From the sequence record PP786691.1: a stretch of DNA of 44,707 nucleotides, one strand, 5' to 3'. Source of the stretch: Escherichia phage phiEco273. The position numbers were made by a program, and so were the translations under genes. The notes beneath the pieces were generated by a model. The model did not search any database and was not told the origin of the DNA. It saw only the letters and a program-made list of their open reading frames with translations. Shown piece after piece: positions 16,633 through 39,096 of the stretch (position 1 is the first letter of the stretch; every line of letters starts with the position of its first letter).

Positions 16633-16666
16633 ATTGGTTGCATAATCGTATTGGTTGCATTATATT
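16633..16666 (+). promoter_or_regulatory. Promoter-like element with two direct ATTGGTTGCAT repeats: -35 TTGCAT (16638-16643), 17-bp spacer, -10 TATATT (16661-16666)
   Basis: Direct reading; same architecture recurs at 38270-38310, 18292-18325, 22216-22248 and on the minus strand at ~3895-3960. Confidence 0.5.
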
Positions 16667-19520: not shown

Positions 19521-22199
19521 TCAACCAGCTAACTTAGCCTCCAGTTCTGAGATTCTTTGCTCAAGTCCTCGGGCGATAAACACGTTTAGTTCCGAATATC
19601 GCAAGCTATATCTATTTCCCGCTGGGGTTATCTTGATCGTAGACTTCGAATTATCATCGGGGTCGCTAATAACCTCGGAAGTCTCCTCCCATTCGTCGTA
19701 GCACACGAATCCATACTTCAAGGGGTCCAGACCGTAAGACTGCATGATTTCCATCACTTTCTGCACGGTAATACCGGCATGGAGCCTTGCCTCGTCCCCC
19801 TCTTCAGCTACTCGCGCAAGCCACTGGAAAATACCAACCTCGCGGGCGATTTCTTTAGAAGCGCCCATCTCGGCCTCTGTTAAACCCCTAACCTCGGTCT
19901 TGAGTCTTGCGTCCGAGGTCTGTATGGCCCCGTTTGCTGCGTAGACCGCGCTAACACGGGAGACTGCACTGCCGATCGGGTATGCGTTGTCCGCAGCGGG
20001 GGACAGCGAGCCGTCGCTCGTAAAGCTCCACCGATCCTTCCTCGTCGTAGACCCTTGTTCCGTTGTAGCAATCGTTATGCCGCACTGGAGGTTTGTCGTA
20101 GACCAGCCAGAAGACGCCTGAATACGAATACCAGCGGCAGCACCCGTAAAACTTACACCACTGTGTCCTGCAAAAGATAGCCACAAGTTGTCTCCCGGCT
20201 GAGTTGCCCCCTTAGTGCCAGCCATTGTGCCGTCAAAAGCCACACCTCGGATGTTTATATTAGCGGTCGACCCGTTTCGTGGGGTGATTAAGGCTATTTC
20301 ATTAGCTGTGTTATTTACTTGTTTAAGACCGCGACCGTTTAATACTTCCAATCCGTTGTAACTTTCCTGCGTTAGCTTATAAAGCCCCATAGGCACATCG
20401 AAACCTATATAAAGGTCGCCGTTGTTGCTGGTCGCGAATGTTTGCCTCCGGTCGGCGTTGGTCTTATTCAATGGGGTTGTTAGCAACCTAAACCAGCCGC
20501 CGTGGTTAGTATCCGAAGCGGTCCCGTCCATGAGGAAGTGCTGCGACACGTTTGAGTGGTCCGTATATGTAGTACCAGTCCACGGACGCGACCCATACCC
20601 CCCAATAAGCACTCCTGTAGCCACGCCGGATCCGTTTGCCGGTTTTGAGTAGTTGTGGAAAACCGCGGACCCCCCGCCGACATTCGCAATACCAAAACTT
20701 GCCTCCGTGGCGTTGCTGGATTCCCAAACAACCCCGTCACCGCTGCCCTCCCCAGAAGTTACGGGCCGTAGTGTAGCCGTGCCAACCCCAATCTTCGGTG
20801 CATTCACTTTACCCGTAAAAGTCGGCGACGACCCAGAGTGATACAATTCAAACCACTGCGACCAGTTGCCGGTATCCGGGTTACTAATCCATCGCATAAA
20901 ACGACGCCCGCCGATGTATATTGTATACGTCTGAATGCAACTCTTCGGGCCGTTAGCGCCGATTTGCTGCACCAGCAAGCAACCCGCTTCCTTGACGGGA
21001 TAGTTAAGCTCCGGTGTGGCTTTTGCCGATACGGATTGACGGTAGAATCCAGCTTTATCGCCGGTCAGGGTGTTAAGGTCTACACTATCCAACGACCCCT
21101 TCTGTTCATGCATGACCTGAAGGTTAGCGCGCGCCCCCTGTTCGTCCGATGCGCCTGTCCCGCCGTCCCCGATCGCCACGTCCCCATTTGGCCCCAGCTT
21201 CGCAAGCTCAATGGCGCTCACACTGCCCGACAACCCGTTAATCCCATTATCGTTTCCCGCGTAAACTTTGACGCGAGCAGTCGTGTAGTCAACGTTAATC
21301 GCAAAAAATGTGTCACCAGCGCGGCCGAACACCCCTGAACTGAATCTGAAAGGGGTCATCTCGCCTGCTTGGAACTGAGAAATATCATCGACGCGCCAGA
21401 ATCCGCCCTTGACCGAATCACGCAACCGCTTGAGCATATCCTTTACGCCAGTTGGTGCCGGTAGCATTACACCAGCATACGGCACTTTCTGCGATGCGTC
21501 CGCGCTGTTGGCGAAGCCTTCAGCCTCGTCGCGAAATCCTTTAGCCTGGTCTTTAGCGGTTACGGCCTGCGATTTAGCTGTCTCCGCAGCGGTCTTCGCC
21601 GACTCTGCTGCCGTTTTTGCTGTCTCGGCTTTACCTTGTGCTGTCTCCGCGGCGGTCTTAGCGGCTACGGCGGCATCTTTCGCAGAGTTGGCGGTGTTCT
21701 TGAATCCTTCAGCCTCGTTACGAAAGCCTTGCGCCTGGTTCTTCGCCGTGATGGTCTGGTCTGCAATCTGCTGCAACTCCACCGGGTCCACGTCTTTAAG
21801 CAGGCTAGACAGGTAGCCCCATGACATACCCTGCACAACTTGCCCACTCGGCAGCGTGACCGAGATTTCCTCTTCTTCTCCGAAGATTGCGCGCCAGTTG
21901 TTCTCATCTGCGATCATCAAGCGCAACGCTTTTTGCGCCTGGACGGTTACGCCCATCGTCGCCAGCGACATGGTATCGCGCTTAACGCCGTCCCACGCAA
22001 GGCCGGTCGCCGTCGGGCCGTCGAACGGCAGTACCAACGTTAGCGCGGTTGCGCTTTCAATGGAAGCGATCGCTACGGTGTAGGGTACTTGTCCTACCAC
22101 CAGCGTTAAGAAATCGCCTGCTTTAAACGCGGTGAACGTTGTGCCAACCCCTACTACCGCCTTGCTGTTGTTCGTTACGGATAGCGTACCCGCTGCCAT
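19521..22199 (-). CDS. tail fiber protein with Ala/Lys-rich repeat shaft and C-terminal intramolecular chaperone (peptidase S74-like) domain
   Basis: ORF 19521..22256 begins on a TTG; first ATG with GAGGA RBS at 22199; repeats AKTAAETAKSQAVTAKDQAKGF; C-terminal ...SDARLKTEV...LEQRISELEAKLAG typical of autoproteolytic chaperone domains. Confidence 0.7.
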   Translation of the reverse strand: MAAGTLSVTNNSKAVVGVGTTFTAFKAGDFLTLVVGQVPYTVAIASIESATALTLVLPFDGPTATGLAWDGVKRDTMSLATMGVTVQAQKALRLMIADENNWRAIFGEEEEISVTLPSGQVVQGMSWGYLSSLLKDVDPVELQQIADQTITAKNQAQGFRNEAEGFKNTANSAKDAAVAAKTAAETAQGKAETAKTAAESAKTAAETAKSQAVTAKDQAKGFRDEAEGFANSADASQKVPYAGVMLPAPTGVKDMLKRLRDSVKGGFWRVDDISQFQAGEMTPFRFSSGVFGRAGDTFFAINVDYTTARVKVYAGNDNGINGLSGSVSAIELAKLGPNGDVAIGDGGTGASDEQGARANLQVMHEQKGSLDSVDLNTLTGDKAGFYRQSVSAKATPELNYPVKEAGCLLVQQIGANGPKSCIQTYTIYIGGRRFMRWISNPDTGNWSQWFELYHSGSSPTFTGKVNAPKIGVGTATLRPVTSGEGSGDGVVWESSNATEASFGIANVGGGSAVFHNYSKPANGSGVATGVLIGGYGSRPWTGTTYTDHSNVSQHFLMDGTASDTNHGGWFRLLTTPLNKTNADRRQTFATSNNGDLYIGFDVPMGLYKLTQESYNGLEVLNGRGLKQVNNTANEIALITPRNGSTANINIRGVAFDGTMAGTKGATQPGDNLWLSFAGHSGVSFTGAAAGIRIQASSGWSTTNLQCGITIATTEQGSTTRKDRWSFTSDGSLSPAADNAYPIGSAVSRVSAVYAANGAIQTSDARLKTEVRGLTEAEMGASKEIAREVGIFQWLARVAEEGDEARLHAGITVQKVMEIMQSYGLDPLKYGFVCYDEWEETSEVISDPDDNSKSTIKITPAGNRYSLRYSELNVFIARGLEQRISELEAKLAG

Positions 22200-22219
22200 A
22201 GCTAAATCCTCGTAATTGG

Positions 22220-22248
22220 TTGCAATCCTGGTTGAACGGTGTAATACT
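22220..22248 (+). promoter_or_regulatory. promoter-like element with TTGGTTGCAA motif (-35 TTGCAA 22220-22225; -10 TAATAC(T) ~22242-22248)
   Basis: Direct reading upstream of lipoprotein gene; shares motif family with early promoters. Confidence 0.45.
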
Positions 22249-22277
22249 AAACTCAACCAAATAAAGGAGATGATACC

Positions 22278-22508
22278 ATGAAAACTCTAATCAAATCCGC
22301 AATCATTGCCGCGTTTGTAGTAATGGCTGTTGGTTGCTCTTCTGGCCCGCGTCCGGATGGTTGGTGCGCCACGCAAGCAAGCGGCGTATGTGTGGCTAAG
22401 TGGAAAGGCGGTGTAGTTGTTGCGGCGGGTGAAGTCGATATTCGTTATGACGGAATTAAAGGGCATGGCGGATCAGTTCGTGATTATGGCTCTCGGGAGT
22501 GGAACTAA
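22278..22508 (+). CDS. small lipoprotein (candidate superinfection-exclusion lipoprotein)
   Basis: 76 aa; signal peptide with lipobox AVGCSS; AAGGAGA RBS; encoded next to receptor-binding genes on the opposite strand. Confidence 0.55.
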
Positions 22509-23443
22509 TGGCGCAAGGTATCTACATCGATCTTAAGGACGGACGCAACCCGATGATAATCACCTCGGGTATGCGTGCCTTGAATTTTGCGGGTAACTTC
22601 GACGTTTCAAGTGGCGGGTTTAGCAAGTCATTCCCTATTAACGGTAATGAAGGGGCTTCAAGGTTTCTTCTGCCGAACAATGGCGCATACTCCTTCGAAC
22701 TGGATCGTGGTGTTGAGGTTTATTATATAACGGGCTTTTCGTCAACAGCATCCAGCGGAACTATATCTATTGGCTCTGAGAATGGTTATCCCGACCGCGT
22801 AACGCAGTTCTCTGGAACTGTAGTTGAGGTTCTTAGAGCATCGACAGGCCAGGGGATTTACGTTGCCGACAGTACGGATTTTACATCGATAACCACAACG
22901 GACCGGTTGCTTGTCTGCAAATTTGCTCAAACTATATCATTCCATGATAGTTACACCCTCCCAATCTACGGCATACCGTTCGGCAGGTGGGACAATTCCG
23001 GTGTTTCTGTTGAGTACGACGGAGTTAATCGGTTGATTTGTACAAACATAAACACAAATGATACAGGGCACACCCCCGGAAGTGTTACTATGGATTTGGT
23101 TATTTTCCAGATGGTTGCGCCCGTTCCGGGACCGGGGTTAAACATATTTAACCGCAACGGCGCCTGTACTCTTTCAACAGTTACCAGGCCCCTTGTTGTG
23201 TCCGGGTTTATAAGTCTGTCAGGAAGCAATCAGTATATCGGGGATTCTTACTTCCCCATTCTAAGGTGTGGGTTCAACACAAGGGCCATACCAGCATATA
23301 AGGAACTAAGAAACAAAGGCGTAGTTATGAGTGGCGGATATGTAAGGTCGGGAACTGGCTCCCGGATTGTAAGGTACGAAATCGGCAACAGACCCGACGT
23401 TACGATACCAACTCCGCTGCCGTACCTCCCAAACATGTATTAA
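22508..23443 (+). CDS. hypothetical Ser/Thr/Gly-rich protein (311 aa), translationally coupled to lipoprotein
   Basis: ATG 22508 overlaps lipoprotein stop (TAATG); no recognised motifs. Confidence 0.5.
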   Translation: MAQGIYIDLKDGRNPMIITSGMRALNFAGNFDVSSGGFSKSFPINGNEGASRFLLPNNGAYSFELDRGVEVYYITGFSSTASSGTISIGSENGYPDRVTQFSGTVVEVLRASTGQGIYVADSTDFTSITTTDRLLVCKFAQTISFHDSYTLPIYGIPFGRWDNSGVSVEYDGVNRLICTNINTNDTGHTPGSVTMDLVIFQMVAPVPGPGLNIFNRNGACTLSTVTRPLVVSGFISLSGSNQYIGDSYFPILRCGFNTRAIPAYKELRNKGVVMSGGYVRSGTGSRIVRYEIGNRPDVTIPTPLPYLPNMY

Positions 23444-23465
23444 AGCCCCTTGCGGGGCTTTAATT
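23443..23465. terminator. hairpin terminator (AAGCCCC-TTGC-GGGGCTT)
   Basis: Between convergent stops at 23443 (+) and 23477 (-). Confidence 0.5.
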
Positions 23466-23476
23466 TCAGAACACAC

Positions 23477-26400
23477 CTAATACAACCCTTCCCCTCCGGG
23501 TAGGTTAACCGTAACCCCATTCCCGTTAATCTGCACGGTGTTATTTTGTCCGTTAAAAGCGAACTCACCACTGTTAGCGTACAGCCTGCCGCGCACCGTC
23601 ACCTCGTTAAACTCCGCGGCCCCGCCTTTCTGGATACGCCAGCCACGTGACCCGGAAACGAAGTTATTTGATTGCAGCGTGTCCGTGATCTGTGCAAAGT
23701 TGATTGACGCATCCTTGATGCGTGCCGTGTCGATGTACACTGCACCACCGTCCACAATAAACGCGGACGAAAGCGTCCCATTCGACGGGTGCATGATGTA
23801 GAACTGGTCCGCCTTGAACGCAATACGTGATTTAACTGCGGTACCAGACGTCACAACGGAAAGCTGCATACCCGCATCATAGTAAGTCCCGTTATACGTC
23901 ACGCCAGCCTTAAGACTGTATGTGGCACTACCACCAGAGTGGTTAAACGAGGACGTCATCTTCTGCTCGATAGCGGCGGACTGCTGACCGAACTGTGTCG
24001 CGACCTGGGTCTTATATTCCGCCAGCGCTCCCGCCACGTCTGCGGTTGCCGTTTGCACCTGCTGGATGGCAGCTTCCTGTTCCCCGAACTTAGCGGCAAC
24101 AGTTTGCTGGTACTGGGCGAATGCTTGCTCGTGTGTGCTTTGCGCGGTCTGCAGCGTGTGGATTGATGCTTCCGCGTCATCAAGGCGCGTGCCGATCAAC
24201 GTTTCCAGTTGTGAGACTGCCTTGTTGGCGTCTGCCGCCACGTTATACGCCACCTTGATTTCAGCATAAATCCCTTTGTACTCGGCGCGGGCGTTGAATA
24301 GCTGCTGGGCGTCGGTGAGCATTGACTCATAAATGCCTTGCGGGATCGTGTTAATAGCTTCCTGGAAGTGTTTACCATCCTCGGAAGTCAAGAACTCGTC
24401 ATCAAGCCCCTTCATGTACTCGTCAACTTTGTCACTCACCTGGCCTTCGAACGGGGCGGACCAGTCCGACAGGTTGCCGATTTTATCCGCTACACGGGCG
24501 CGCAACTGCTGGTAAATTCCGAACTCAAGCGACGTTTGCGCGTACTCCGCGCCCGGATATGGGACGTTGGTAAGGAATTTCCATTCAGTCTCACCAGTCT
24601 TGCGCACTTCAAGCTCGGTGTATGAGATATCAGTCGCAGCGTTGTTGTGATTCCACTTCCATAGGATCTGGTGTAAACCTGAAATCGCGTTGGTGATGAT
24701 TGGCGCATTAAGCCCTCCGAGGCGACCTTCCACCGGCGTGATTGCGGAAGACACCCACGGAGATGAAATCTCGCCCATACCGATCGCACGGACGCGTGCC
24801 TGATAGTTACCGGAGAACACGTTAGGGATGTGTGCCCCATTCGACGCCGTGCGCGGAATATTCACCCAGTCGTTGCCCCACTGGATTTCCATATTCTGTA
24901 AGCTGGTGCGCCGCCACTGTATTTCATACACCACGGCGTCCTTCACCGGCGGGAAAACAATATCCACGTTGGTGATTAGCTGGCCTTGCGATGAAATCTG
25001 CGACGGGGTTATGGTCACGGATTCCGGCCCCTTCATTACGCCGTCAGGCACTTGCGTAAAGATGCCTGGGTCAAGGCGCGCGCCATTATCAACGGCATCA
25101 TATTTGCTATCGTTGTATTCAATCCCGCGCACCGAAAAAGTGCTGGTAGAGTCGTCATATTCCAGGTCGGTTATGCGGAACTTCTGCAACTGGATATCGT
25201 TGCCATCAACGCAAAACGGCTGGTCTGGAATCGGGTCGGCATCCAGTGCAGTTTTTAGCGTAACCTTGTTGCCGTTGACGCTGGCGATCTCGCGAGTCTC
25301 CACATTACCGCTATCGGTGCGCACCAGGAACTTATCGCCAGGGCGGAACGTGATTTCGCTGTCCGTGTTCAGCACGGTACGCGTTCCGGGGTCTGACAAC
25401 AGTCGACCGCCACGAGTCTCGAATCCGCCAGAAATATTAGTATCTGCGATCGCGACTACGCTACCAGGGATAAAGAATAACCCCTCCATGCCCACCTTAA
25501 AGCTAACTTGCTGGTCAAGCTGGTTGGAAATTAGCGCCCAGTGCCCGCGGCGTTGCGCTTCAGATTCACGCGTACAGCCGATCGCCGTAATATCAAGACG
25601 GTTAATCTTATGGCGGCGTACCAATTCGACACGTTGCCCCGTTGCGATGGCATCTTCATAGTGGTTCTTCGGGTTGCCGTATGCTACTGCGAACGTGGAG
25701 TACCGAGTTTTCTGGCTACCGGACGCGTAGTCGAAGCGCCCATCAATAACCGATGCGTTGGTGATAGTGTGCGATACCGCCGCGACCGGCTGGTCACTGA
25801 CGATATTCAACATCTGATTACCCCACCAGGTCATTCCGGCAAAGATAGCGGCTAAATCCTTAAGCACTGTCCAGGCATCGGTCTGCGACTGGATATACAT
25901 ATCATTCTTAAATCTGATTTCCTGCCCACCGTTGCCGTCACTGACCAGTTGATCGCAGCGCTGCGCAATCTGGTAAAGCGCGTACCGGTTCAACATTTGC
26001 GGCTTGATCCGGCGACCGAGGCCGAAGCGCTCAGTAATACAAATATCATACCAGTGCCACGCAGGGTTATCCGTCCATGCGCGTTTAAACGTCCCATCCC
26101 AGTTTCCAGAATAGGTATGCCTAATCGGGTCATAGTTGTTCGGCACCAGCACCTTACGTCCTTTGCACTTGATGGACACGCGCGGGATGTTCTGGAACGC
26201 TTTGGCGTCGAACTCCACGAACAACAGCGCGGTTAGCGGGTATCGCAGGCGGGCGTCGATAATCTCAGTAATGGATTGCACCCGGATATCATTAACCACT
26301 TTCGCCGATGTGGAGTCTGCCGTTATGCGGTGCACCTCCACGCGCCATCCGGTATTCACGCTCGCCGGTAACTCAATGCGGTGGTCGCGCTCGTACAGCG

Positions 26401-38181: not shown

Positions 38182-38329
38182 GCTATCCCCCTGGGATTGT
38201 GGCAAAGCGGGCCACCCGCTTGACTTCACGCCTTAATATTATCAGCGATAAAAATAATCGCAAAATTCGCTTGCAATCCGAGTATTGGTTGCATTATATT
38301 GGTTGCACACCAACAACGAGGACACAAAA

Positions 38330-39094
38330 ATGAGACTTACTAAAGACATTAAAAATCAGATTCTGGCTAACATCCTGCGCGACCACGAAATCGCAACCGA
38401 AGCCAAACAAATCATGATGGACTCGCGCGACCTGGCTTATGCCATTACGCTGGACTGTATGCCGGAAGGCATTCGCACGTTCGCCGAGCTACTCGCGCGC
38501 ATTGAAGCAATCGGCGATGACCCGTCGCAGATGTACGGCGTCTGCGTATACACCAACAAGGCGACGTATAGTTATAACACAGACCGCCCAAAAGGTATCG
38601 GCAGCGTTTACGACGCCACTTTCGAAATCAACGCAGGCGGAAACGTCCGTACCGTGTCATTGAGCGGAGACGGACACCGATTCCGAGTACATCGCGGATA
38701 CTGGGAGTATAAATACATGAATAAACTGTCTCCCGATCTCGGCGATATTGTGCCAGGGTATGAGGAAATTTTGTTAGCGTCAGTGTGCGAAGTCGACGAC
38801 GACGGGAAAGCGCTGCCGATATACATGCCACGCGGTCGTATAGACTACCCGGCGGACCATGATTTCTGTAAGCGCCTGGACCGTAACGACAAGGCCCGCC
38901 GTGAGTTGCGGGCTAAGTATGACGCGTTCAAGTTGACCGTTACCGGTGTGCTGGACCTGCACAATACTGACAAGAAGCTGATTAAGGCATGGCCTGAAGT
39001 TGAGCAATTCATCCCTTACCCGGACAAGCCAAAATCCACGGCGGTGGCGCTGGACGTGAAAACACTCAACGAGATTTGCGGCATTCCGCGCTAA
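38330..39094 (+). CDS. hypothetical protein (254 aa), opposite-strand moron within head module
   Basis: ATG 38330 with GAGGA RBS; preceded by TTGGTTGCAT/TATATT promoter-like element and followed by bidirectional terminator. Confidence 0.55.
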   Translation: MRLTKDIKNQILANILRDHEIATEAKQIMMDSRDLAYAITLDCMPEGIRTFAELLARIEAIGDDPSQMYGVCVYTNKATYSYNTDRPKGIGSVYDATFEINAGGNVRTVSLSGDGHRFRVHRGYWEYKYMNKLSPDLGDIVPGYEEILLASVCEVDDDGKALPIYMPRGRIDYPADHDFCKRLDRNDKARRELRAKYDAFKLTVTGVLDLHNTDKKLIKAWPEVEQFIPYPDKPKSTAVALDVKTLNEICGIPR

Positions 39095-39096
39095 CG

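Follow-up and report, generated by a model that had tools for sequence, protein, structure and literature searches.

Exclusion lipoproteins and receptor-binding proteins of small siphophages

Rtp45 was reportedly first described, by Wietzorrek et al. in 2006, as the exclusion lipoprotein of phage Rtp. Decker et al. are said to have characterized llp of T5 in 1994 as an early gene with its own promoter. Rtp45 has been solved on the periplasmic side of the translocon LptDE, with a Cys30–Cys38 disulfide and a strand (residues 30–35) that forms a β-sheet with LptD; an exclusion mechanism was given, and Rtp45 without Rtp44 suffices for the LptDE complex that explains exclusion (PMC12685063). The receptor-binding protein (RBP) of Oekolampad (Bas18) was soluble when purified, and its structures show it attached to LptDE from outside the cell, with an open state of the translocon (PDB 9RPT/9RPW/9RQI); it also bound in vitro, and LptD mutations conferring phage resistance abolished its binding (PMC12685063). 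Spontaneous host mutants resistant to seven small siphophages, TheodorHerzl (Bas14) among them, carried lptD deletions, and these phages share an RBP locus downstream of gpJ; Bas14 and Bas02 were both blocked by lptD loop deletions (ΔY658–Y678, ΔL394–V396; Maffei et al.), and LptD dependence is on record for TheodorHerzl and JeanPiccard (PMC8594841). Three loop groupings have been distinguished by Black et al. (PMC13035648).

T5 offers a parallel on a different receptor, FhuA rather than LptD. Its monomeric RBP, pb5 (oad), is located at the central fibre tip; the adjacent gene encodes a small periplasm-facing lipoprotein, Llp, that likewise inactivates the RBP's receptor (PMC9586334). Llp acts by long-range allostery, whereas Rtp45 sterically displaces loop EL4.

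Gene layout of the phiEco273 cassette

The window, a stretch of 44,707 nucleotides from Escherichia phage phiEco273 (PP786691.1), is the genome of a Dhillonvirus (an HK578-like virulent siphophage). Between its lateral tail fibre gene and J lies a two-gene cassette transcribed opposite to both, which we interpret with high confidence as the LptD-type host-recognition module, RBP plus exclusion lipoprotein, of this phage. The ORFs, their homologies and synteny, the hairpin and the motif are seen directly in the phiEco273 sequence:

22199, minus strand: start codon of the lateral tail fibre gene, the neighbour upstream of the cassette
22216–22225, plus strand: TTGGTTGCAA motif (from sequence and conservation), whose last six bases, TTGCAA (22220–22225), are a putative −35 element
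22240–22248, plus strand: putative extended −10 element TGTAATACT, read from the sequence, with hexamer AATACT at 22243–22248
22254–22263, minus strand: inverted degenerate copy of the motif in the sequence (TTGGTTGAGT on the minus strand)
22264–22269, plus strand: Shine–Dalgarno sequence AAGGAG, read directly, 8 nt 5′ of the lipoprotein ATG
22278–22508, plus strand: gene of the predicted exclusion lipoprotein, 76 aa, Rtp45 ortholog (Pfam PF24052, PDB 9RPS chain D, identities)
22506–22510, plus strand: TAATG stop/start overlap, with an SD-like GGGAG 8 nt before the second ATG
22508–23443, plus strand: gene of the predicted RBP, 311 aa, Rtp44/Oekolampad RBP family (DUF6453, PDB 9RPT chain C)
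23441–23463, no strand assigned: GC-rich hairpin TTAAAGCCCC-TTGC-GGGGCTTTAA between the convergent stop codons
23477–23590, minus strand: 3′ end of J, encoding its last ~37 residues (LYANSGEFAFNGQNNTVQINGNGVTVNLPGG...), an LptD-type tip segment
23477–26917, minus strand: J, convergent with the cassette

The original prediction, made from the letters of this DNA, had described ORFs of 76 and 311 aa joined at a TAATG and opposed to the late operon; both ORFs and the junction were found as it had described them, and the orientation against the tail fibre gene and J agrees. By the locus definition of LptD-type RBP genes that we took from PMC13035648 and PMC8594841, the 936-bp second ORF belongs to this class: it directly follows the lipoprotein gene, and 33 bp separate it from the J stop codon. 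The order of lipoprotein then RBP, convergent on J, is identical in Rtp, JeanPiccard, TheodorHerzl and Oekolampad; the TAATG overlap is common to TheodorHerzl, Rtp and JeanPiccard, while Oekolampad has a 2-nt gap. We propose that a single transcript carries both genes, with the lipoprotein gene leading and coupled to the second through TAATG, and ends at the shared hairpin.

TheodorHerzl, of the same genus, carries the closest counterpart (bas14_0026/0025), with the same position between J and tail fibre gene, orientation and TAATG overlap. Cassette DNA was 95.2% identical to that of TheodorHerzl and 90.8% to that of HK578, and the Bas14 proteins differed by 4 substitutions in the lipoprotein and 12 in the RBP. 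The lateral tail fibre departs from TheodorHerzl's past the first ~171 residues (911 aa versus 574 aa), and, set against TheodorHerzl, phiEco273 J is missing a G close to its 3′ terminus, a 1-nt frameshift in the last codons that alters the final 8 residues and, if real, could affect RBP docking. Oekolampad, also a Dhillonvirus, shares locus, orientation, promoter region and Pfam families (DUF6453, PF24052); its allele is divergent, with 32% identity in the RBP and 37.5% in the lipoprotein. Rtp (Drexlerviridae), a phage of another family and backbone, has the same gene pair (rtp45/rtp44), order, overlap and convergence on J, but the upstream neighbour is a block of recombination genes and not a tail fibre gene, and its promoter context therefore differs.

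In FhuA-type Dhillonviruses the very slot of the lipoprotein gene is taken by a Cor-type gene (e.g. Pubbukkers gp27), which shares its promoter and first five codons (MKTLI); the Pubbukkers protein has 27.4% global identity to the lipoprotein and no match to PF24052. There, J and the candidate RBP genes share a strand, and the exclusion gene alone is inverted. No sequence relationship of the cassette to T5 Llp/pb5 was detected (Pfam returned only PF24052 and DUF6453), and the phiEco273 RBP would share the transcription unit of the lipoprotein, unlike the T5 llp arrangement.

The two proteins and their predicted receptor

The 76-aa protein matched Pfam PF24052 (Phage_lipoprotein) over residues 1–75 (score 113 bits, curated cut-off 27; E = 6.6e-33), as did Rtp45 and the Oekolampad lipoprotein, and matched Rtp45 in PDB 9RPS chain D (E = 1.5e-39). 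It is 94.7% identical to bas14_0026 and 81.6% to Rtp45, rising to 89.5% in the mature part. A rule-based check (PROSITE PS51257-style) bore out the lipobox noted in the original prediction: residues 1–19 form a signal peptide that fits the rule, followed by lipidated Cys20, as in Rtp45, and then Ser-Ser, with no Asp at +2, as for sorting to the outer membrane. Residues 20–43 are identical to Rtp45, and Cys30, Cys38 and residues 30–35 are unchanged; the mature parts differ at 6 of 57 residues (positions 44, 49, 55, 63, 64 and 73). Family membership and identity to Rtp45 thus support the assignment of the lipoprotein as an Rtp45 ortholog and a predicted superinfection-exclusion factor acting on LptD, in line with the receptor-blocking role first suggested for it. 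A Pfam scan carried to E = 0.1 gave only PF24052 and no assignment to the T5 Llp or T1/phi80 Cor families, so that, judged by sequence, these are functional analogues of the lipoprotein and not members of its family.

The 311-aa partner matched DUF6453 almost end to end (E = 3.4e-121, 404.5 bits, profile positions 1–290 of 291), as did Rtp44 and the Oekolampad RBP, and it matched the latter in PDB 9RPT chain C over residues 1–311 (E = 6.4e-41; 32% identity by BLASTP, E = 1e-47). Its identity was 96.1% to the Bas14 protein, 88.7% to that of Bas02 and 78.1% to Rtp44. The sequence match to solved structures settles its family and, through predicted similarity, its fold. As the original prediction had it, the protein is rich in Gly, Ser and Thr (11.6%, 10.0% and 8.4%); the claim that it has no recognizable domain does not survive the full-length DUF6453 match. 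Homologs with DUF6453 extend to phages of Klebsiella, Salmonella and Aeromonas, down to ~32% identity. PHROG 1265 and several GenBank records label the partner family 'membrane protein', and PHROGs files it under 'moron'; GenBank lists both genes as 'hypothetical protein' in the nearest relatives, including Bas14, and Pfam knows the larger family only by its DUF name. A scan of both cassette proteins against NCBIfam returned nothing meaningful.

Because of its DUF6453 match, its identity to the Bas14 and Rtp44 proteins and its full-length homology to 9RPT, we assign the partner as the phage's RBP, with LptD as its predicted receptor, and not as a second component of exclusion or defence. The original prediction had proposed the latter, with the 311-aa protein and the lipoprotein working jointly within infected cells. 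Co-transcription and translational coupling of the genes would suit such a cassette, as would their orientation opposite to the late operon, a promoter motif that otherwise precedes only non-structural genes and the PHROGs category 'moron / membrane protein'. We nevertheless consider it highly improbable: the partner is homologous end to end to the Oekolampad RBP, whose structure on the outer face of LptDE is solved and whose binding is abolished by LptD resistance mutations (PMC12685063); it has neither an export signal nor a membrane segment; no family among the PADLOC-DB defence models matched either cassette protein at E up to 1; Rtp45 alone, without Rtp44, makes the LptDE complex that explains exclusion; and the J tip co-varies with the partner allele, as a docking partner would. 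The partner had also been placed outside the paradigm of small receptor-blocking lipoproteins, although T5 llp likewise adjoins a receptor-binding gene (PMC9586334). Proof that it is a virion structural protein was to count against the two-component idea, and its close homologs point to just that. Scarcely credible, too, is a host-membrane 'moron' protein, the reading suggested by the 'membrane protein' label. Its highest 19-residue Kyte–Doolittle mean was 1.29, below the usual membrane-segment threshold of ~1.6, neither a signal peptide nor a membrane segment was found in it, and the homolog was purified soluble before being solved. In a megablast search the cassette had no match in 5,426 complete E. 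coli genomes and is therefore not a prophage moron.

An RBP and exclusion factor that act on a receptor other than LptD, or on LptD and a second protein, would be quite improbable in our estimate. RBP tip loops evolve fast, twelve substitutions separate the phiEco273 and Bas14 RBPs, and the ~32% identical DUF6453 homologs of Klebsiella, Salmonella and Aeromonas phages have no receptor assigned. Bas01, which bears a close Rtp44 homolog, requires NupG in addition to LptD, so LptD need not be the sole protein receptor, but the NupG requirement is ascribed to a domain of J and not to the RBP locus (bioRxiv 10.64898/2026.04.02.716166). Against another receptor stand the 96.1% and 88.7% identity of the RBP to those of the LptD-dependent Bas14 and Bas02, and the LptD-contacting strand of the lipoprotein, which is identical to that of Rtp45. 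The solved RBP, that of Oekolampad, is only 32% identical to the phiEco273 protein, and the way in which Rtp44-type RBPs engage LptD may differ somewhat.

With LptD as the predicted receptor, the 311-aa RBP, a predicted monomer, would be made in the cytoplasm, dock on the J-like central fibre at its C-terminal tip and bind LptDE, the essential LPS translocon, from the extracellular side, leading to irreversible adsorption. The 76-aa lipoprotein would leave the cytoplasm, receive its lipid at Cys20 and reach the outer membrane's inner leaflet, where it would bind the periplasmic side of LptDE and push extracellular loop 4 of LptD outward; with loop 4 displaced, binding of the RBP to LptD would be blocked. 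Superinfecting phages that use the same receptor would be excluded, and progeny would not be lost to cells already infected or to debris. For phiEco273 itself, receptor, exclusion activity and virion location are predictions carried over from the homologs.

The C terminus of J fits a role in docking. Its tip segment is 92% identical to that of Rtp and JeanPiccard J, compared with ~25% for the remaining C-terminal region, and differs in the Cor-type Pubbukkers; across phage families, these C-terminal ~37 residues co-vary with RBP type. Receptor-specific GpJ C termini have been reported as well (bioRxiv 10.64898/2026.04.02.716166). The segment accompanies the RBP and exclusion genes from phage to phage and probably docks the RBP.

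Regulatory signals and significance

The promoter motif noted in the original prediction, TTGGTTGCAA, is present at 22216–22225 and enriched in the window, where it occurred 13 times at up to one mismatch against 3.25 expected (none of 100 shuffles reached 13). TheodorHerzl, Oekolampad and Pubbukkers carry the motif unchanged. The copy at 22216 and the inverted TTGGTTGAGT copy lie on either side of the putative −10 element and of the presumed start of transcription near 22255. The arrangement TTGCAA-17 nt-AATACT with an upstream TG agrees with the consensus at 8 of 12 positions, under the threshold of our scan, and the consensus scan for promoters or terminators in the upstream gap returned none above threshold. 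Both hexamers are invariant in four Dhillonviruses, with a variable spacer between them, and the promoter region is 83–96% conserved in 154 phage records. A cassette promoter is plausible, and so, from motif sharing, is its 'early-type' label; both the promoter and its timing are predictions. A literature search on the timing of transcription in Dhillonviruses gave nothing usable. A promoter-like match inside the RBP gene (22911–22940) was rejected as being at chance level (1 found, 1.9 expected), and inspection by eye, which took in the 78 bp between the divergent genes and the first part of the lipoprotein gene, revealed no convincing sigma-70-type promoter for the tail fibre gene.

The 8-mer TTGGTTGC has 19 copies in the window, 14 of which fall in the 11% outside mapped genes; its sites are mostly tandem or palindromic pairs and precede non-structural genes only. 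On the RBP reading, a virion protein would share its transcript with an exclusion factor, under a promoter motif shared with non-structural genes, and this speaks against that reading. It is conceivable, though we think it unlikely, that TTGGTTGC is a putative operator of a phage regulator that times a 'non-late' regulon including a virion protein, thereby coupling the amounts of RBP and receptor blocker. If so, the TTGGTTGC regulon would unexpectedly take in a virion protein.

Terminators had been predicted on both sides of the cassette, and the downstream one was recovered. The hairpin at 23441–23463 folds at −16.5 kcal/mol on the plus strand and −19.2 kcal/mol on the minus strand (z = −4.6 and −4.3) and probably terminates transcription in both directions, that of the cassette and that of J; a hairpin stands at the matching place in Oekolampad, with a different sequence, and in Rtp and JeanPiccard, with a similar one. 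No counterpart was found in the upstream 78-bp gap, which, folded on both strands, was indistinguishable from shuffled sequence (z = −1.3 and −0.3).

The module is already characterized in LptD-targeting small E. coli siphophages, and its coding content holds nothing new. The comparison links a published function to two poorly annotated families, the PF24052 lipoprotein and the DUF6453 RBP, and makes the terminal receptor of phiEco273 predictable as LptD, an essential and conserved outer-membrane protein considered for phage steering.

Layout of the inverted cassette

The sequence is an essentially complete Dhillonvirus genome, with ~91–93% identity to TheodorHerzl (Bas14), SD276, UHP65 and others over 82–86% of its first 25 kb. 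Consistent with the original prediction, two ORFs run against the lateral tail fibre gene and the J-like tail tip gene (J) that enclose them, and are coupled through TAATG, in which the stop codon of the lipoprotein gene overlaps the start codon of its 311-aa partner.

22278–22508 (+), lipoprotein ORF, 76 aa
22508–23443 (+), ORF of the predicted receptor-binding protein (RBP), 311 aa
23441–23463, GC-rich hairpin within the 33 bp between the convergent stop codons
23477–26917 (−), J-like tail tip gene
19521–22199 (−), lateral tail fibre gene, real start codon at 22199

A Shine–Dalgarno sequence, AAGGAG, precedes the lipoprotein gene, and GGGAG lies within that gene upstream of the RBP start. 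Identity across the cassette region reaches 95.2% with TheodorHerzl and 90.8% with HK578, neither of whose records gives the two genes any annotation beyond hypothetical protein.

Relationship to the LptD-type exclusion and receptor-binding proteins

The N terminus of the lipoprotein (residues 1–19, then CSS) conforms to the rule for lipoprotein signal peptides (Cys20, followed at +2 by a residue other than Asp), supporting the signal predicted earlier. Pfam places the protein in PF24052 ('Phage lipoprotein family', E = 6.6e-33), and it also matches chain D of PDB 9RPS (E = 1.5e-39), which is Rtp45 of phage Rtp, solved on the periplasmic side of the outer-membrane LPS translocon LptDE (Dunbar et al. 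2025, PMC12685063). Residues 20–43, including Cys30, Cys38 and the 30–35 strand, are identical to Rtp45. Together with the PF24052 match, the identity to Rtp45 (81.6% overall, 89.5% in the mature part) backs the proposal of a receptor-blocking exclusion lipoprotein.

The 311-aa partner (Gly 11.6%, Ser 10.0%, Thr 8.4%) had been described as lacking a recognisable domain, but DUF6453 covers its full length (E = 3.4e-121). It is 96.1% identical to bas14_0025, 88.7% to the JeanPiccard (Bas02) homologue and 78.1% to Rtp44, and aligns end to end with chain C of PDB 9RPT (E = 6.4e-41, 32% identity), the RBP of Oekolampad (Bas18); the Oekolampad RBP and Rtp44 are also DUF6453 proteins. By cryo-EM, the Oekolampad RBP inserts into the extracellular face of open LptDE, and LptD point mutations that confer phage resistance on E. 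coli abolish its binding (PMC12685063). Spontaneous mutants resistant to seven small siphophages, including TheodorHerzl, Oekolampad, AugustePiccard and JeanPiccard, carried lptD deletions, and a 'bona fide RBP locus' downstream of gpJ is common to all seven (Maffei et al. 2021, PMC8594841). The association of this RBP family with LptD has been confirmed across more phages (2026 preprint, bioRxiv 10.64898/2026.04.02.716166).

These relationships contradict the earlier reading of the pair as a two-component exclusion or defence cassette. The supposed second component is homologous to RBPs, it has no detectable signal peptide for export, PADLOC returned zero matches, and Rtp45 alone forms the excluding complex (PMC12685063). 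Nor is the RBP likely to recognise a receptor other than LptD, given its 96% and 89% identity to the RBPs of LptD-dependent phages. It also has no membrane segment (top 19-residue hydrophobicity average 1.29; usual threshold ~1.6). The database label 'membrane protein / moron' for the 311-aa protein is without sequence support. No copy of the cassette was found in 5,426 complete E. coli genomes.

By analogy with the homologues, the RBP would be made in the cytoplasm, join the tail tip and, after lysis, bind LptDE on a new host. The lipoprotein would be exported, lipidated and sorted to the outer membrane, where it would lock LptDE in a conformation that the RBP cannot bind; phages using the same receptor would thereby be excluded, and progeny spared loss to infected cells and debris. 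We infer that having the exclusion gene in the leading position, with the better ribosome-binding site of the two, would suit a need for many blocker molecules: a cell holds roughly 400–600 LptDE (PMC12685063), and the RBP would be needed at one per virion if it resembles the monomeric pb5 of T5 (PMC9586334). The module works like those of T5 Llp/pb5, where the exclusion gene also adjoins the RBP gene, and Cor. The cassette proteins are, however, not sequence members of the Llp/pb5 and Cor families; judged by every feature that could be tested, they belong to the Rtp45 and Rtp44/Oekolampad-RBP families. The original observation is thus largely real and its interpretation half right.

When the cassette (22278–23443) is compared with phage records, the lipoprotein is far more conserved across LptD-type modules than the RBP (for example Rogue1, 76.5% versus 39.3%; phiEB49, 73.3% versus 42.4%; ESCO41, 73.4% versus 38.5%; BECP10, 74.1% versus 39.9%). 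Such a gap would make sense if the periplasmic LptD interface is constrained while the extracellular one evolves fast, or if the two genes recombine independently.

Synteny and the J tip

In Rtp, JeanPiccard, TheodorHerzl and Oekolampad alike, the lipoprotein gene comes first and the RBP gene second, the pair converging on J. Pubbukkers, a Cor-type Dhillonvirus, carries an exclusion gene that sits behind the same promoter and opens with the same five codons; its candidate RBP genes come after J and are encoded on the strand of J. The C-terminal ~37 residues of J (23477–23590, −) are 92% identical to those of the Drexlerviridae Rtp and JeanPiccard, on a background of only ~25% identity across the preceding ~260 residues of the C-terminal region, and they differ in Pubbukkers. 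The J tip thus travels horizontally with the genes for the RBP and the exclusion lipoprotein, and the unit exchanged comprises J tip, hairpin, RBP and exclusion gene. The tip is likely to be the docking site of the RBP. Receptor-specific GpJ C termini have already been reported (bioRxiv 10.64898/2026.04.02.716166).

At its 3′ end (23477–23500, −), J has one G fewer in a G-run than in TheodorHerzl (GGAGGGGAAGG versus GGAGGGGGAAGG), so that it ends in ...VNLPGGEGLY* instead of the ...GGGRVVLGVF* conserved in Bas14, Bas18, Rtp and Bas02. Either this is a sequencing error in a homopolymer, or the probable RBP-docking segment really is frameshifted.

Flanking signals and transcription

Of the terminators predicted on both sides, the downstream one is supported: the hairpin at 23441–23463 has free energies of −16.5 (+ strand) and −19.2 kcal/mol (− strand; z = −4.6 and −4.3). 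The upstream one was not confirmed, since nothing of the kind folds in the 78-bp gap there (z = −1.3 and −0.3). The downstream position is occupied by a similar hairpin in Rtp and JeanPiccard and by one of different sequence in Oekolampad, which argues for a functional bidirectional terminator.

The proposed promoter, from which the RBP would be transcribed along with its exclusion factor, consists of TTGCAA at 22220–22225, a 17-nt spacer, and AATACT preceded by TG; it agrees with the consensus at 8 of 12 positions, under the scan threshold. Both hexamers are invariant and the spacer variable among four Dhillonviruses, and the region through 14 nt into the lipoprotein gene is 83–96% conserved in 154 phage records, irrespective of the cassette that follows. 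The predicted TTGGTTGCAA motif is real and enriched (13 matches at ≤1 mismatch versus 3.25 expected; 0 shuffles reach 13). The exact 8-mer TTGGTTGC occurs 19 times on both strands (~1.4 expected for a random 8-mer), and 14 copies avoid the mapped genes, which leave only 11% of the window free. They usually form tandem pairs 14–35 bp apart or palindromes (for example 3913/3944, 4315/4350, 10058/10074, 16634/16651, 18306/18318, 22216/22254 and 38285/38299), and a TAT(A/C)TT −10 element abuts those at 16651, 18318 and 38285. TTGGTTGC could serve as a promoter element or as the operator of a putative phage regulator. Because the copies lie upstream of non-structural genes only, 'early-type' is a reasonable label, by association, for the cassette promoter; a literature search found no Dhillonvirus transcription data.

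Directly behind one TTGGTTGC tandem pair lies an opposite-strand ORF of ~255 aa (MRLTKDIKNQILANILRDHE...; ~38328–39095, +), embedded in the late structural operon in the slot of TheodorHerzl's DnaN-like bas14_0007, to which it has no homology by tblastn.

The inverted cassette and hairpin separate the lateral tail fibre gene from the transcript of J, and scanning and inspection of the − strand revealed no evident sigma-70-like promoter for it in 22200–22277 or 22278–22400. The fibre may be expressed by read-through antisense to the cassette or from an unrecognised late promoter. Counted from the ATG at 22199, the fibre protein is ~892 aa long and carries a Peptidase_S74 chaperone domain at its C terminus; what it has in common with the 574-aa fibre of TheodorHerzl is confined to the first ~171 residues. 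The locus is the genus's usual hypervariable O-antigen-recognition locus (PMC8594841).

The module itself is not new: close relatives have it, and there its structure has already been characterised.
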